A stretch of DNA of 41,171 nucleotides from Bacilli bacterium (GCA_028684435.1 JAQUFX010000002.1:1-41171), one strand, 5' to 3'. Counted from the stretch's first letter, positions 19,510 to 40,977 are shown. Notes: a model not told the origin generated them from the letters alone. Made by a program: numbers and translations.

Positions 19510-21060
19510 ATGAAAATCTTAAAATATCTTATTTTTACATTAATTATTTTAGTGCCAATAAATGTTAATGCAGCTATTAGTGTAAGTTGTGATGGACCAG
19601 CAAAAATAAATCAAAGAATTTCTTGTGATATTAAAACGGATGTTAAAATTTCATCATTTAAGTCGACTTTAGTAGTAGATTCAGCCGTAACTTATGAAGG
19701 TTCTGTTGCTTCAACGAATTTTGTGCAATTAAGTAGTGGTCGTAATTTGAATTTTCAAACTGCTAATTCTAGTACATATAAAGAAGGTCTGATAGCTTAT
19801 TTAACTATTAATGTACCAAATACAACAAAATCGTCATTTACTTTATCATTTACTAATATTGAATATATTTCATTAAGTGGAAATAAAACGCAATCTAATG
19901 TATCTGAAACAGTTCAAATAATGACTACGACAAGTAAAACTACATCAACCACAAAAATAATTACAACCCAAAGTGCTACTGAAAAAACATTTACTGTAAC
20001 ACTTAATCCGAATAATAATAGTGATAATAATGAAATTATGAAATGTACAACAACTGGGTCTAATTGTAAGATAAATTTATCCAATGTTAATATACCAATT
20101 AAAAATGGGTTTACTTATAATGGTTGGGGAAATGCCACAACTTGTACCGAAGGAAGTAAGACTTCTTATACAGCTTCTGGGGATGCTACTTTATATGCTT
20201 GTTGGTTAAATTCAGGAACCGATGATCCTGATAATGGTGAAACATTATATTTGCAATCTTTATCTGTTGAAGGCCAAGAACTAGACTTTAGTAAATTTAA
20301 AAAAGAATATGATTTAGTTGTTTTATATGAAGTAGAAAATCTAATTATTATTGCTGCTCCTGCTAAAGAAGGAGTAAATGTTGATTTACAAGAAACATAT
20401 CCTTTACAAGTAGGGGAAAATACAATATTAATAAAATTATCTGATGAAAATCAAAATACTACAACTTATACTATTAATGCCAAAAGATTAAAAGAAGGAG
20501 AAGAGATAAGAATTCCTTCAACTGATGCAACTTTAAAAAAAATTATTATAAAAGGATATGATATAGATTTTAAACCTAATGTATTTGACTATACTTTAAA
20601 AGTACCTTCAGGAACAAAATCTTTAGATGTTAAAGCAATAGTAAATAATGAATATGCTGATTATAAAGTATCTGGAAATGACAATATTTATGATGGTAGT
20701 ATAATTTCTATTAAAGTTAAACCTGAAATTGGTGATGTTATAAATTCATATGATATTAAAATTGAAGTAGTAAAAGGAATTAAAGATTATTTATTATATA
20801 TAGTAGTTGGTAGTGTAATTTTAATTGGTATTATTGCTTTAGTAATTATTAATCAATCGAAAAATCAAAAAAAGAAAAATACAAAACAAAATATTGCTGC
20901 AATTGCACCAGCTAAGAAAGTACCAACCAAAATGAATAAAGTTCAAACTCCGGTAGTAAAACCGATTCCGGTTCCAAAACCAGTACCTCCCCAACCGGCT
21001 GTGGCATCACAAGTAAAGCCTTCAGAACCAAAAGATACAGTTGAAGTACTAGATTTATAA
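19510..21060 (+). CDS. Secreted multi-domain surface protein with a C-terminal TM anchor and a Pro/Lys-rich tail
   Basis: It has a signal peptide (MKILKYLIFTLIILVPINVNA) and an N-terminal beta-sandwich (cohesin-like). A T-rich linker follows. One Listeria-Bacteroides (Flg_new) repeat comes next (FTVTLNPN...GFTYNGW...ATLYACW). Two cadherin-like beta-sandwich modules follow (LQSLSVEGQELDF...; LKKIIIKGYDIDFKPNVFDYTL...). It ends with a TM helix and the tail PVVKPIPVPKPVPPQP. I prefer ATG 19510 (RBS AGGAAG) over the track start 19477. Confidence 0.75.
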   Translation: MKILKYLIFTLIILVPINVNAAISVSCDGPAKINQRISCDIKTDVKISSFKSTLVVDSAVTYEGSVASTNFVQLSSGRNLNFQTANSSTYKEGLIAYLTINVPNTTKSSFTLSFTNIEYISLSGNKTQSNVSETVQIMTTTSKTTSTTKIITTQSATEKTFTVTLNPNNNSDNNEIMKCTTTGSNCKINLSNVNIPIKNGFTYNGWGNATTCTEGSKTSYTASGDATLYACWLNSGTDDPDNGETLYLQSLSVEGQELDFSKFKKEYDLVVLYEVENLIIIAAPAKEGVNVDLQETYPLQVGENTILIKLSDENQNTTTYTINAKRLKEGEEIRIPSTDATLKKIIIKGYDIDFKPNVFDYTLKVPSGTKSLDVKAIVNNEYADYKVSGNDNIYDGSIISIKVKPEIGDVINSYDIKIEVVKGIKDYLLYIVVGSVILIGIIALVIINQSKNQKKKNTKQNIAAIAPAKKVPTKMNKVQTPVVKPIPVPKPVPPQPAVASQVKPSEPKDTVEVLDL

Positions 21061-36210: not shown

Positions 36211-36804
36211 ATGAAAATAGATAATAGCTTTTTGAGTGTTATTGCAGTAAGAATAAGTCAATATCCCGAACCTAATAAACCCGAATTTCTTTTAGTGGGG
36301 AGGAGTAATGTTGGTAAAAGTAGTTTCATTAATTCATTATTAGGTAGAAAAAATTATGCTAAAACAAGTAGTAAGCCTGGTAAAACTCAAACATTAAATT
36401 TTTATTTATGTAATGAAGAATTTTATTTAGTTGATGTTCCTGGTTATGGATATGCCGCTGTAAATAAAGCTATTCAAAAAAAGTTTGGATTAATGATTGA
36501 AGAATATTTAACTCATCGTGAAAATTTAAAAAGAGTATTTATGATAATTGATAGCCGTATGAAACCGACTGAAAATGATCATATTATGTATAAATATCTA
36601 AAATATTTTAATATACCTGTAACTATCGTTGCTACTAAATATGATAAGATAAAACCTAATGATCGTGACAAGATTATGAAATCAATAGAATCTTCTATTA
36701 ATATAGATGAAAACGATCAATTAGTATATTTTTCTAGTATTACCAAAAAAGGTAGAGACGAAATATATAATATCATAAATAATGAATTACAAAAAGAAGT
36801 TTAA
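36211..36804 (+). CDS. engB: Ribosome biogenesis GTPase EngB/YsxC
   Basis: GRSNVGKSSFINSL (G1), KPGKTQ, DVPGYGYA (G3) and TKYDK (G4). Confidence 0.9.
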   Translation: MKIDNSFLSVIAVRISQYPEPNKPEFLLVGRSNVGKSSFINSLLGRKNYAKTSSKPGKTQTLNFYLCNEEFYLVDVPGYGYAAVNKAIQKKFGLMIEEYLTHRENLKRVFMIIDSRMKPTENDHIMYKYLKYFNIPVTIVATKYDKIKPNDRDKIMKSIESSINIDENDQLVYFSSITKKGRDEIYNIINNELQKEV

Positions 36805-36828
36805 AATTCTTTTTTTTTATTGTATAAT
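36800..36828 (+). promoter_or_regulatory. Candidate promoter of the pilin operon (TTTAAA-17 nt-TATAAT, TG adjacent)
   Basis: TATAAT at 36823-36828 is preceded by TG, and a -35-like TTTAAA lies at 36800-36805. RBS AGGTGG precedes ATG 36850. Confidence 0.4.
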
Positions 36829-36849
36829 GATTAAGATAGGTGGTATATA

Positions 36850-38709
36850 ATGAATAAAAAAGGGTTTACTCTTATAGAAGTTTTAGTAGTTATAACAATT
36901 ATCGGTATATTAACAGCAATAGCAATACCAGCGGCACAAGGTATTAACAAAAAAATAAGTCAAAAGTTATATAATTCTAAAATAACTTTAGCAGCTGAAG
37001 GAGCTAAAGTTTGGGGAGAAGACCATAAAAAATGTTTCACATGTAGTGGAGCATCTTGTTCAAGCAAATGTGTTGAAGATTTATACTGCGATCCTACTTT
37101 AGATTTTGAAAATGAAAAAATATGTGAAATAACTATTGAAGTTTTAGCAAAAAATAAATATATTAAATATGATGATGAAGCAAATAAAAAAATTGTCGAT
37201 CCAAGGAATAAAAACAATTTGTTAAATGATAAAAAAATAATAATAGTATATAATAAAAATTATAAAACCGTAAATACTGGTTATGATTATTATTCTTTAT
37301 CATTTGATGGTAATGGAGCAACTAGTGGTGAGATAAAGCCGAAAACATGTAAAGCAGATACATTATGCCCTATACTTAGTAATAGCATTTTTGAAAGAAC
37401 TAATTATGATTTTGTTGGATGGTCTTTAACTCCAAATGGTAGTGTTGATTATAATAATTCAAATTCTATTAAATTAACAGCAGATACAACGCTTTATGCT
37501 ATATGGAATTTAAAAAAATATTCTTTATCGTTTAATAGTAATGGAGCTACTGGGACTATGGGTTCTATAAAATGTGAACATGAGCAACCATGCTTAATAC
37601 CTAATAATAAATTTGAAAAAATTGATAATAAATTTATTGGATGGAGTACTACTTTAAATGACAAAGTTGAATATAATTCTGGAGATTCAATAAGATTAAT
37701 TGCTAATATGATTTTATATGCTAAATGGTTAGAAGTTGATACAAGACCACCCACTATTTTAATTACTAATACAAATACTTTATTATCTGGAACTGATATC
37801 TATTCTAGTCCAGTATCTATAAAAATAAGTGCGACAGATAATTTATCAGGAGTAAAAACAATTAAATATTGTACTACTACTGCATCTACATGCACACCAA
37901 CAACTAATATATCTAATGGAAGTAATATTTCTGTAACTGGTAGCACAACAACGGTATTAGGTAATACTATATGTGCTATTGCAACAGATAATTTAGGCAA
38001 TACAATGACTACTCCTACGTGTGAAACTTATAAAATAGATAATCGTAATCCTAGTATAACATGTTCTAGTACTGGGGATTGGAGTAATACCTCATCACAT
38101 ATAGATTGTACTGGAACAGATTATTTTGGTATTAGAAAATTAGAATGGAGCTTTTACAATAATAATTGGAATACATTTAGTACTATAAATGGAAGTGGAC
38201 CTTTTTCTACACCTTATAATGCTGGTTTTAATACATCAAAATATCAAAATTATGTTAAAGCAACTGATACTGCCGGCAGAACGTATACAACTAATGCTTA
38301 TAGTAAAATAGATACTTTAACTCCTTTTCCACCAGCATTAGATATTTACGGAATAATTAATGATACTAATAGCAATATTAGCAATGTCACTTGTACTAAT
38401 AATAAATATTTAGCAGATGGAACTAATAACCCAAATTATAATAAAAATGTTAACACTATTTGTAGGTTAACATATATAAATTATTATAACAGTTATACTT
38501 GGAGTTGGTATTGGGAAGATGACTGGAACGCTGATTCTGGATATTCTGGTATAAGTCATTTGACTTATAACGGATCTTGTTCTTCAAATTATTATACTGG
38601 TGGAAATGTTCCTTGCTTAAGTATTGGTTCAGGATGTTATGCGGATTTCTATGCAGTTGATGCTGCCGGCAATAAATCCTTAACTTATTTGAGAATATAT
38701 GCGCCATAA
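36850..38709 (+). CDS. Large modular type IV pilin / pseudopilin (619 aa) with a prepilin N-methylation signal
   Basis: MNKKG|FTLIEVLVVITIIGILTAIAIPA is a class III signal: Gly at -1, Phe at +1, Glu at +5 and a hydrophobic alpha1-N helix. A ~135-aa pilin head follows. Next come two Listeria-Bacteroides repeats, then two Ig-like modules (DTRPPTI...SGVKTIKY; DNRNPSI...ATDTAGR), then a W/Y/C-rich C-terminal module. Confidence 0.8.
   Translation: MNKKGFTLIEVLVVITIIGILTAIAIPAAQGINKKISQKLYNSKITLAAEGAKVWGEDHKKCFTCSGASCSSKCVEDLYCDPTLDFENEKICEITIEVLAKNKYIKYDDEANKKIVDPRNKNNLLNDKKIIIVYNKNYKTVNTGYDYYSLSFDGNGATSGEIKPKTCKADTLCPILSNSIFERTNYDFVGWSLTPNGSVDYNNSNSIKLTADTTLYAIWNLKKYSLSFNSNGATGTMGSIKCEHEQPCLIPNNKFEKIDNKFIGWSTTLNDKVEYNSGDSIRLIANMILYAKWLEVDTRPPTILITNTNTLLSGTDIYSSPVSIKISATDNLSGVKTIKYCTTTASTCTPTTNISNGSNISVTGSTTTVLGNTICAIATDNLGNTMTTPTCETYKIDNRNPSITCSSTGDWSNTSSHIDCTGTDYFGIRKLEWSFYNNNWNTFSTINGSGPFSTPYNAGFNTSKYQNYVKATDTAGRTYTTNAYSKIDTLTPFPPALDIYGIINDTNSNISNVTCTNNKYLADGTNNPNYNKNVNTICRLTYINYYNSYTWSWYWEDDWNADSGYSGISHLTYNGSCSSNYYTGGNVPCLSIGSGCYADFYAVDAAGNKSLTYLRIYAP
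37291..37728 (+). repeat. Tandem pair of Listeria-Bacteroides (Flg_new) repeat modules inside the large pilin gene
   Basis: YSLSFDGNGATSG...YDFVGWSLTPNGSVDY...TTLYAIW (aa 148-219) and YSLSFNSNGATGT...NKFIGWSTTLNDKVEY...MILYAKW (aa 224-293). Confidence 0.7.
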
Positions 38710-38719
38710 AGGAGAACAA

Positions 38720-39106
38720 ATGAAAATTATTAAAATATTAAATAAAATATTAATTGTTATAGTTGTATTACTTATTATAGGATTAATAACGCTTCCTTTT
38801 ATTTCTAAAGAAGATAAAAATCAAGGAGAATCTAAAATAAATAATAAAGAACCAAAAACAACTAAAAAAGATCAAAAAATTTTATTAACTGATAAAGAAG
38901 TACTTGATTTATTAATTATTTATAAAGATAACAATCATGATTTTATTATAAGGGATAAAACAAATAATAAATATATAATAGAAAGAAAGAATTCTGATAC
39001 AGGAAATATTGATATGATTTTTGAAGTGAATCTTGCAACTAATGATTTTAAAATTGTTGAGATAAAACCTAGTCAAGGGATTTCTGGTGGTGGAAGTGGA
39101 GAATAA
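38720..39106 (+). CDS. Hypothetical membrane-anchored protein inside the pilin operon (128 aa)
   Basis: AAGGAG lies 6 nt upstream of ATG 38720; the track start 38699 is an upstream extension. It has one TM helix (ILIVIVVLLIIGLITLPF), a K/E-rich linker, a small globular domain and a C-terminal GGGSGE. Confidence 0.6.
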   Translation: MKIIKILNKILIVIVVLLIIGLITLPFISKEDKNQGESKINNKEPKTTKKDQKILLTDKEVLDLLIIYKDNNHDFIIRDKTNNKYIIERKNSDTGNIDMIFEVNLATNDFKIVEIKPSQGISGGGSGE

Positions 39107-39551
39107 AGGTTTTACTTTAGTAGAAATTTTAGCAGTTATAACTATAATAAGTTTGTTAGTTCTTATTGCTATACCTGCATCGCAAAGCATTGCTAAAAAA
39201 ACTAATGAAAAAATGTATATATCAAAATTAGATATTGCTAAACAAAGTGCAAAATTATGGGCTATTGATAATATTGAATGTTTTAAAAATCCAATTTGCA
39301 AAAAAATTATTCCTGCAGAATGTAAAATTACTAAAGACAATATTAAGTGTTATACCATTACTTTAAATGCTTTAGCAGAAGAAGGGTATTATGATTATGA
39401 TGGTTATGATGATGAAGGGAATGGAAGAATAATAGATCCAAGGAATAAAAGCGAAGAAAATGATTTAAATGATACTCCTTTATTAATTAATTATAATACT
39501 AATACTAAAAAAATTGATTTTATAACTATTGAAAAGTCTTTGATTAATTAA
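39087..39551 (+). CDS. Type IV pilin / pseudopilin (154 aa), paralogous to the N-terminal domain of the 619-aa pilin
   Basis: MVEVENKG|FTLVEILAVITIISLLVLIAIPA is a prepilin signal. The GTG start is 39087, 39090 or 39096. It overlaps the preceding gene by 20 nt. ...KKTNEKMYISKLDIAKQSAKLWA...ITLNALAEEGY...RIIDPRNK aligns with ...KKISQKLYNSKITLAAEGAKVWG...ITIEVLAKNKY...KIVDPRNK of the large pilin. Confidence 0.75.
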   Translation: MVEVENKGFTLVEILAVITIISLLVLIAIPASQSIAKKTNEKMYISKLDIAKQSAKLWAIDNIECFKNPICKKIIPAECKITKDNIKCYTITLNALAEEGYYDYDGYDDEGNGRIIDPRNKSEENDLNDTPLLINYNTNTKKIDFITIEKSLIN

Positions 39552-39576
39552 TTTTGTGTTTTATACTTTTACAAAA

Positions 39577-39604
39577 AAATCCTTTAATATTAAGGATTTT
39601 CTTT
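39577..39604 (+). terminator. Intrinsic terminator closing the pilin operon
   Basis: aaatcctt / aaggattt form an 8-bp stem with a 7-nt loop, followed by TTTTCTTT. Confidence 0.65.
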
Positions 39605-39660
39605 GCTTTATTTTTAATAATTTAGTATGCTAATAACATAGAAGTTAAGGAATGATGGAT

Positions 39661-40977
39661 ATGAGAAAAACAGTATGTTTAATAGGAAGACCCAATACAG
39701 GAAAATCAACTCTTTTTAACAGATTAATAAAAGAAAAGAAAGCTATTATTCATAATTTACCAGGAGTTACTAGAGATCGAATTTATGGGATTGTTAATTT
39801 TGATAATAAAAGTTTTCATTTAATTGATACTGGGGGAATTGATTTAGGAGAAGAAAAATTCAATAAGAGTATTAAAATGCAAGCCGAGCTTGCAATAGAT
39901 GAATCAGATGTTATTGTATTTGTTATTGATGGAAAAACCGAATTAACAAGTAATGATATATTAATAGCAAATATGTTAAAGAAAACTAATAAAAAAATAA
40001 TTGTTGCAGTTAATAAAATAGATGATAATAAACATGATGATAATATATATAATTACTATGAATTAGGTTTTGATGCCTATATTCCAGTAAGTGGAGAACA
40101 TAATCGCGGTATTAATGAATTACTTTTTGAAATCACCAATGATTTTAATCCTTATACGACTGAAGAAGATGAAAGTATTTTAAAATTTAGTATAATAGGA
40201 AGACCTAATACTGGCAAAAGTTCACTAATAAATGCTTTACTTAATGAAGAAAGAGTTATCGTATCAAATGAAGCAGGAACAACAAGAGATGCTATAGATA
40301 CAAGATTTACTTATGAAAAAAATAATTATATTGTTATCGATACTGCGGGAATGAGAAAAAAAGGTAAAATATATGAACAAGTAGAAAAATATAGTTTAAT
40401 AAGAAGCTTAAAAGCTATTGATAGATCTGATGTCTGTGTTTTGATTATTGATGCTAAAGATGGCATAATTGAACATGACAAACATATTGCATCTTATGCT
40501 CTTGATGCTGGAAAAGCAATAGTTTTAGTAGTAAATAAATGGGATTTAATAAAAGATAAAAATATTCAAATGAAAAAATGGATTAAAGATATTAGAAATA
40601 ATTTTCAATTTATTCCCTATGCTAGTATAGTATTTTTATCTTCATTAACAAAGGCAAGGATTCATACTTTAATGCCAGAAATATTAAAAGCCTATGAAAG
40701 TGCTACTAAAGAAATAAAAACATCAGTCCTTAATGATATTATAAGAGATGCCTATGCATTACATCCAGCTCCTAGTTATAAAGGAAGAAGATTAAAAATT
40801 TATTTTGTCCATCAAGAAGGGACAAAACCACCGAAATTTAACTTTTCAGTTAATAATAAAAAATTAGTCCATTTTAGTTATGAAAGATATTTAGAAAATA
40901 AAATAAGAGAATCTTTTGAATTAACTGGAACTCCAGTAATAATAAAATTTACTAATCGAGGTGATAAAGATGAATAA
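39661..40977 (+). CDS. der: Ribosome-associated double-G-domain GTPase Der/EngA
   Basis: It has two G domains (GRPNTGKSTLFN...DTGG...NKID and GRPNTGKSSLIN...DTAG...NKWD) plus a KH-like C-terminus. I prefer ATG 39661 (MRKTVCLIG); the track starts at 39652. Confidence 0.95.
   Translation: MRKTVCLIGRPNTGKSTLFNRLIKEKKAIIHNLPGVTRDRIYGIVNFDNKSFHLIDTGGIDLGEEKFNKSIKMQAELAIDESDVIVFVIDGKTELTSNDILIANMLKKTNKKIIVAVNKIDDNKHDDNIYNYYELGFDAYIPVSGEHNRGINELLFEITNDFNPYTTEEDESILKFSIIGRPNTGKSSLINALLNEERVIVSNEAGTTRDAIDTRFTYEKNNYIVIDTAGMRKKGKIYEQVEKYSLIRSLKAIDRSDVCVLIIDAKDGIIEHDKHIASYALDAGKAIVLVVNKWDLIKDKNIQMKKWIKDIRNNFQFIPYASIVFLSSLTKARIHTLMPEILKAYESATKEIKTSVLNDIIRDAYALHPAPSYKGRRLKIYFVHQEGTKPPKFNFSVNNKKLVHFSYERYLENKIRESFELTGTPVIIKFTNRGDKDE

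Follow-up and report, generated by a model that had tools for sequence, protein, structure and literature searches.

The window analysed here is a whole contig (C22, 41,171 nucleotides) of an uncultured Bacilli bacterium with a small genome (~0.95 Mb). The host genome assembly comprises 945,727 bp in 70 contigs with 24% GC, and its completeness is estimated at 84%. Between engB (36211-36804) and der (39652-40977) lie three genes on the plus strand, which we call P1, P2 and P3. P1 (36850-38709) encodes a modular type IV prepilin of 619 amino acids (aa) with the leader MNKKG↓FTLIE, including Glu5 (arrows mark predicted cleavage sites). P2 (38720-39106) encodes a 128-aa bitopic protein with a single N-terminal transmembrane (TM) helix. 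P3 (39087-39551) encodes a small prepilin of 154 aa, starting with MVEVENKG↓FTLVE. Calls of open reading frames (ORFs) and matches to Pfam N_methyl confirmed this arrangement, which had been described in an earlier sequence-only reading of the window. There is no sign that the cassette was acquired recently by horizontal transfer; its GC content (24-29%) is like that of the flanks, and it contains no Rfam element.

P1 is preceded by a Shine-Dalgarno (SD) sequence, AGGTGG, at 36838-36843, and P2 by GGAG at 38711-38714, about eight bases 5′ of its ATG. P3 is translationally coupled to P2. The overlap of these two genes is 20 nucleotides (nt), as previously described, if P3 starts at the GTG at 39087, but it is 17 or 11 nt if the in-frame GTG at 39090 or 39096 is used. 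P2 and P3 also overlap or abut in relatives. It was observed that the same bases (39084-39106) encode the conserved P2 tail GGGSGE and the SD-like GGTGG and GTG start region of P3, and the conservation of this tail may come partly from translational coupling rather than from protein function.

The region between engB and P1 (36800-36849, plus strand) contains a −35-like TTTAAA (36800-36805), a −10 TATAAT (36823-36828) and the SD sequence of P1. The sequence-only reading had regarded the three genes as a self-contained unit with its own −10 box. The box is present, but an independent promoter and self-containment are not demonstrated, as promoter-like matches in this AT-rich stretch are not enriched (27 versus 30.2 in shuffles). 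In addition, no terminator-like element was found in the gap of just 45 nt between engB and P1. Thus, read-through from engB is possible. In two relatives with a single pilin (G007 and G008), the pilin ORF overlaps the engB stop. At the other end, an AT-rich hairpin (39576-39600, plus strand) is followed by a U-rich tract. Its folding energy is −9.6 kcal/mol (z −3.55) and none of 200 shuffles folded as well, although it was not called by the canonical terminator scan. What had been described as a clean terminator is therefore better called a probable intrinsic terminator.

P1 and P2

P1 has a class III signal peptide, MNKKG↓FTLIEVLVVITIIGILTAIAIPA (Pfam N_methyl 34.7 bits; gathering threshold 21.2), and its motif residues G5, F6 and E10 (G-1, F1 and E5) are invariant across six orthologs. 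P3, with ...ENKG↓FTLVEILAVITIISLLVLIAIPA, also has a class III signal peptide, and its N_methyl score is 27.1 bits against the same threshold. The first 146 residues of P1 (36850-37287, plus strand) are a pilin module that is paralogous to P3 (42-48% identity, E 1e-21 to 4e-26) and is modelled as a helix and a beta head. This module is followed by two Listeria-Bacteroides/InlB B-repeat (Flg_new) domains at residues 148-292 (37291-37725, plus strand; Pfam PF09479, 68.4 bits), and a genome search placed the repeats at 37291-37500 and 37519-37725. Two Ig-like beta-sandwich domains, which are OmpL47-type/DUF7743-like, occupy residues ~296-487 (37735-38310, plus strand). This region matched the NCBIfam OmpL47-type barrel with 27.3 bits, which is under the cut-off, and the DUF7743 match was weak; this type of Ig-like domain is repeated within many large surface proteins. 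A Cys-rich C-terminal domain at residues ~488-619 (38311-38706, plus strand) completes the protein. P1 is a modular pilin by definition, since it consists of a pilin module and extra domains that are not pilus-specific (Flg_new and Ig-like).

In the AlphaFold2 (AF2) model of P1, which has a predicted local distance difference test score (pLDDT) of 73.7, the alpha1 helix spans residues 8-58 and the pilin head extends to about residue 143; the two Flg_new domains come next, then two Ig-like sandwiches (302-394 and 402-484) and a beta domain of lower confidence (512-618). The lollipop fold of pilins, a long alpha1 helix with a beta head, is seen in this model, and P3 is likened to it by the sequence identity given above. 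A Foldseek search with the P1 model led to the tandem-Ig adhesins GhpA and SiiE and the ice-binding adhesin MpIBP. Sequence and model thus support an adhesin-like modular architecture of P1, and the resemblance to tandem-Ig adhesins suggests that the extra modules may mediate adhesion.

Full-length orthologs of P1 are rare; just six were found among 5.8 billion proteins, and every one with a named source comes from a metagenome-assembled genome (MAG) and is named "MAG: Bacilli bacterium". Fifteen cysteines are invariant in the orthologs. The C-terminal 324 aa (residues 296-619) are 82, 81, 75, 62 and 48% identical in the orthologs, versus 70-73, 55 and 44% for the whole protein, and this is the best-conserved part of P1. 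No further copies of these C-terminal modules were found in the host genome by tblastn. The Flg_new repeat was also observed in three other host ORFs, at window positions 19990-20199 (a 543-aa frame), C35:9629-9808 and C56:1459-1635. The context of a distant pilin with Flg_new (P0044) has no similar partner genes. A contig titled "uncultured Muribaculaceae bacterium" (L054, CAZZNR010000102.1) encodes, alongside engB and recU, a P1 ortholog of 55% identity; its gene content is of the Bacilli type and does not fit the title, so that the MAG label looks wrong.

P2 matches no Pfam or NCBIfam family and belongs to an orphan family confined to the genus. Its AF2 model (pLDDT 73) consists of a TM helix at residues 2-28, a disordered linker at 29-56, a domain with a helix and four beta strands at 58-115 (helix 58-63; strands 73-81, 84-91, 97-104 and 109-115) and the GGGSGE tail. 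Two paralogs in the related genome G010 match the P2 hidden Markov model (HMM) at 1e-11 (G010a) and 2e-5, and G010a matches Pfam PepSY (PF03413) over model positions 1-57 of 60 (E 6.4e-5), where its 23.6 bits fall just short of the cut-off of 24. From these matches and the model, P2 is probably PepSY-like, at about even odds. A search of the PDB with the P2 sequence gave nothing significant. A profile search of 80 genomes of the family gave mostly noise (TM and low-complexity matches), and the sole credible homolog was found in G054, where it lies between uvrC and mutL and does not adjoin pilins.

Two other identities of P2 were considered and rejected. P2 is not PilN, PilO or PilM, as it has no family matches and no cytoplasmic N-terminus, and it has a disordered linker where a coiled coil is expected. 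It is not a degenerate pilin like ComGG either, as it is without Gly-1 or Glu5, the linker breaks any alpha1 helix, and there is no family match. P2 occurs just alongside P1, the pair is duplicated in G010, and both proteins are truncated in G012. This supports the suggestion of the sequence-only reading that the middle protein could be a dedicated partner, as P2 behaves as such toward P1.

The engB-der slot in relatives

The order recU-engB-[pilin(s)]-der is kept in every locus of the genus that we examined, and the slot between engB and der differs in content. Three genes as in the host are present in G009, G006, G011 (P1 cut at the contig end) and G005 (spread over two contigs), and G002 has a P1-like gene cut at the contig end. 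Four loci (G003, G007, G008 and G013) have a single small pilin, and both P1 and P2 are absent from them. For G001 and G004, the search with P1 returned just a small-pilin match, and these are matches rather than loci. G010 has two pairs of big pilin and P2: after engB come a pilin of 724 aa and a P2-like protein, then a second pilin, of at least 677 aa, with another P2-like protein, and finally a small pilin before der. In G012 the slot is degraded; P1 is a pilin-only ORF of 145 aa with a remnant of the last 22 codons, and P2 is shortened to 88 aa by an in-frame deletion. Outside the genus, at least 8 of 29 engB loci have a small prepilin in the same interval, and in 6 engB abuts der.

The slot pilin is thus found throughout the genus and in other genera; P3 therefore holds an ancestral slot, and P1 and P2 are the variable addition. 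The sequence-only reading had treated the three genes as one accessory cassette and proposed a comparison of the engB-der interval in relatives. This comparison confirmed that P1 and P2 vary within the genus and are accessory, but P3 is to be separated from them as the ancestral slot pilin. The P1, P2 and P3 proteins of G009 are 70, 77 and 74% identical to those of the host, and engB and der are 95 and 93% identical. The cassette evolves faster than the flanking genes.

All pilin modules of the genus formed one clade in a tree, with weak internal branching. In a tree of engB and der, the three-gene genome G006 fell among single-pilin genomes with 85/88 support, which indicates losses or recombinational exchange. 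Support in the two trees was too weak to order gain and loss. In G007 (L017 569-1096) and G008 (L020 2247-2756), a gene of 169-175 aa lies between the slot pilin and der, and we take it to resemble AbiQ/ToxN-type toxins (MYKNFKIVKINSDYCDYLR...).

Dispersed machinery of the filament

The window, that is, the whole of contig C22, encodes no prepilin peptidase, assembly ATPase or platform protein, and all T2SSE, T2SSF and Peptidase_A24 matches of the genome are on other contigs. A PilB/GspE-type ATPase of 448 aa is encoded at C46:4034-5380 (T2SSE 425 bits); it is intact, with Walker motifs and a tetracysteine, and scored 485 bits with TIGR02538, 480 with GspE and 271.8 with ComGA (cut-off 300). 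A PilC/GspF platform protein of 532 aa with two T2SSF domains is encoded at C35:18567-20165, and adjoining it is PilD, an A24 prepilin peptidase of 252 aa (C35:20172-20930) with a GGGDIK motif and an N-terminal Cys4. A search of 14 genomes of the genus detected PilD in every one and the ATPase in 13, and the ATPase of G009, the closest relative, shares 97% identity with that of the host. In G012 (locus L015; genome 89% complete), no PilB-type ATPase was found and PilD is present, and the filament system of this genome may be decaying.

A motif scan of the host genome revealed seven prepilin-like ORFs on five contigs: two on C7, P1 and P3 on C22, a 626-aa modular pilin on C25, and one each on C35 and C65. 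Small pilins other than P3 are located at C7:207, C35:14835 and C65:5395. The pilus genes stand singly among housekeeping genes, whose names were read from ORF translations and not from family searches. One pilin lies between cdaA-cdaR and gpmI-glmM and another before ftsY, the ATPase gene is alone beside tsf and rpsB, and PilC-PilD follow glmM. The sequence-only reading had correctly noted that no machinery lies within the 41 kb and that the cassette would rely on machinery encoded elsewhere. It also saw a special sign in the detachment of the pilins. This did not hold, because every type IV filament gene is dispersed in this genome, and detachment from the machinery is the normal state of the lineage. 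The same reading held that the cassette would be non-functional if the genome had no prepilin peptidase or assembly ATPase; a PilB-type ATPase, PilC and PilD are all present. Non-functionality for want of machinery was rejected, as these three proteins are intact on other contigs and conserved in the genus.

On the minus strand of C25 (5008-8853), the modular prepilin of ~626 aa (MKRKG↓FTIIE) is directly followed by a 625-aa membrane-anchored arylsulfotransferase-like (ASST) protein. By sequence, this is a second case, after P1 and P2, in which a modular pilin is paired with a membrane-anchored partner. Other Bacilli MAGs show the same gene order, with tuf, the big pilin, the ASST-like gene and femAB in succession (P0035 and P0037; loci L064 and L066-L068).

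A probable tip-adhesin module and its relation to known systems

The best explanation of the locus, which we consider to have a probability of about 65%, is that it encodes a variable tip-adhesin module of a type IV filament, in which the resident engB-pilin-der slot was expanded by an accessory adhesin pair. The accessory adhesin module proposed by the sequence-only reading is thus largely right. According to this explanation, P3 would be the small resident pilin of the slot, and P1 would have arisen from a duplicated pilin module to which five beta-rich modules were grafted (two InlB-type, two Ig-like and the Cys-rich end). P1 and P3 would enter the membrane via their class III signal peptides and be cut after Gly-1 by the PilD of the genome. 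They would then be assembled into a type IV filament by the PilB-type ATPase and the PilC platform, whose genes are on other contigs. P1 seems too bulky for the filament shaft. By analogy with PilB and PilC of Streptococcus sanguinis, it may sit at the filament tip, with a stalk of ~470 residues and the end domain facing a putative ligand. P2 may serve P1 as a dedicated partner, which perhaps keeps the bulky module at the membrane or shields it there until it is loaded.

Several observations weigh against this explanation. The cassette is known from the gene sequences of an uncultured bacterium. The P1 model has a predicted template modelling score (pTM) of 0.38, and its terminal domain is of low confidence. 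P2 itself has no PepSY match, and its model has no significant PDB neighbour (best Foldseek E 0.097). The type IVa features, namely the PilMNO complex and PilT, were not encountered in the scan of the host genome: PilT was not found, PilN had no match, and PilM_2 matched just a 424-aa FtsA-like frame, while PilO was not searched. As the genome is 84% complete, the absence of PilT and PilN is not proven. Furthermore, the tree of pilin modules is too poorly resolved to place duplication, gene conversion and loss in sequence.

The missing PilT, PilM and PilN would also fit an alternative in which P1 is a cell-bound adhesin whose pilin-like N-terminus, cleaved or not, is just an anchor, with the stalk passing through the wall and P2 an unrelated neighbour. 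The stalk of five beta domains does resemble cell-anchored tandem-Ig adhesins, and the C-terminal trio of P1, which recurs in a few other prepilins (P0057 and P0136), is also found behind an ordinary Sec signal peptide (P0064). However, all orthologs invariably keep the complete class III motif, Gly-1 and Glu5 included, and a simple anchor needs no Glu5. P1 also keeps a pilin head paralogous to P3, PilD, PilB and PilC are conserved in the genus, and P2 co-varies with P1. We therefore regard a cell-bound adhesin as unlikely.

A DNA-uptake pseudopilus of the Com type is another possibility, with P3 as a ComGC-like major pilin and P1 as an accessory receptor, which might for instance bind DNA or serve in attachment during uptake. 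ComEC is present in the host genome, the best specific NCBIfam match of P3 is ComGC, and the minimal machinery of ATPase, platform and peptidase is as in Com systems. However, the NCBIfam scores are all under their cut-offs (ComGC 33.9 versus 75, ComGD 30 versus 70, ComGA 271.8 versus 300 and ComGB 152 versus 240), and the PilB and GspE models score the ATPase at about 480. There is no comG-like operon, as the ATPase is on C46, PilC-PilD on C35, and pilins on C7, C22, C25, C35 and C65. The modules of P1 are of adhesin type and are not known DNA-binding modules. This makes a Com pseudopilus quite improbable in our view. That the cassette is a decaying remnant without current function is very improbable. 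In favour of this, G012 has P1 cut to the pilin module, an in-frame deletion in P2 and no ATPase found in an 89%-complete genome, and several genus members are without P1 and P2. In the host, however, all three ORFs are intact and follow good ribosome-binding sites, the orthologs (44-73% identity) are full-length and retain the 15 invariant cysteines, the C-terminal part of P1 is more conserved than the rest, and the machinery genes are intact.

Modular pilins were defined by Raynaud et al. (2021, PMC8179133), who counted over 1,200 such proteins with 264 architectures and argued that they are effectors located at the tip. Dataset S1 of that study lists the architecture IPR012902-IPR013378-IPR013378, a pilin module with two Listeria-Bacteroides repeats, in 9 proteins. 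In S. sanguinis the modular pilins are PilB, which carries a vWA module, and PilC, which carries a lectin module (PMC8179133, PMC9934059). The pilin moiety of PilC is bound and stabilised at the tip by a small pilin, PilA (Shahin et al. 2023, PMC9934059). P1 and P3 fit this scheme, with a small partner pilin encoded adjacent and a predicted role as tip adhesin. In contrast to the S. sanguinis type, P1 has three more domains after the repeats (two Ig-like and the Cys-rich end), and the genes are placed between engB and der, away from any pil locus. In addition, the intercalated, co-varying and non-pilin P2 is a bitopic protein not described in PMC8179133 or PMC9934059. Thus, the modular design and the architecture of a pilin with two repeats are already catalogued, and the locus is a further example and not a new kind of system.

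The large minor pilins of type IVb pili, such as CofB of enterotoxigenic Escherichia coli (ETEC) and TcpB of Vibrio cholerae, likewise have a pilin module followed by beta-repeat and beta-sandwich domains and a proposed site at the tip; they initiate assembly or adapt a partner protein (discussed in PMC8179133). P1 differs from them in that no sequence relationship was found, the host is monoderm, and the machinery is PilB/GspE-like rather than T4b. The partner also differs, as P2 is membrane-tethered and not secreted like CofJ or TcpF. The Com pseudopilus of Bacilli (ComGA-GG and ComC) is from the same bacterial class and shares with the host ComEC, a minimal machinery and the lack of detected PilM, PilN and PilT (PilO was not searched). 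Unlike in Com, the equivalog models all score below cut-offs, the genes are dispersed and not in one comG operon, and the canonical set does not include the modular pilins of adhesin type, P1 and the C25 pilin. Finally, P2 resembles small membrane-anchored PepSY proteins (PF03413; Bacillus YpeB and YpmB-type) in its TM anchor, its linker and its modelled domain of ~60 residues, a helix with a four-stranded sheet, but P2 itself misses PepSY and has no PDB neighbour, and the 23.6 bits come from one paralog of the P2 family.

We found no literature linking PepSY to pilins, and the pairing of P1 and P2 may be the sole new element of the locus. It is conceivable, though we rather doubt it, that each large modular pilin of the lineage needs a co-encoded, membrane-anchored non-pilin partner (P2 for P1 and the ASST-like beta-propeller for the C25 pilin) that escorts, shields or activates the effector module before it is loaded at the tip. 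If this were true, such dedicated partners would be a class of accessory components not described for type IV filaments, and an escort or chaperone role of P2 would point to an unrecognised accessory step in the display of bulky tip adhesins. If P2 has no real escort function, the finding is an ordinary annotation of a modular pilin locus. The slot offers a traceable case of a pilin gaining adhesin modules, in which a duplicate appears to have received five domains and then to have been re-duplicated or trimmed in sister species. It also appears that a streamlined, uncultured lineage of Bacilli with ~1-Mb genomes keeps a complete yet fully dispersed set of type IV filament genes.

The only other T2SSE-family ATPase in the host genome is VirB11/TadA-like. 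A cluster at C11:17382-24647 comprises genes for a surface protein of 1055 aa, for small membrane proteins and for a VirB11/TadA-like ATPase of 366 aa, and may be a Tad-like or conjugation-type system separate from the PilB system.

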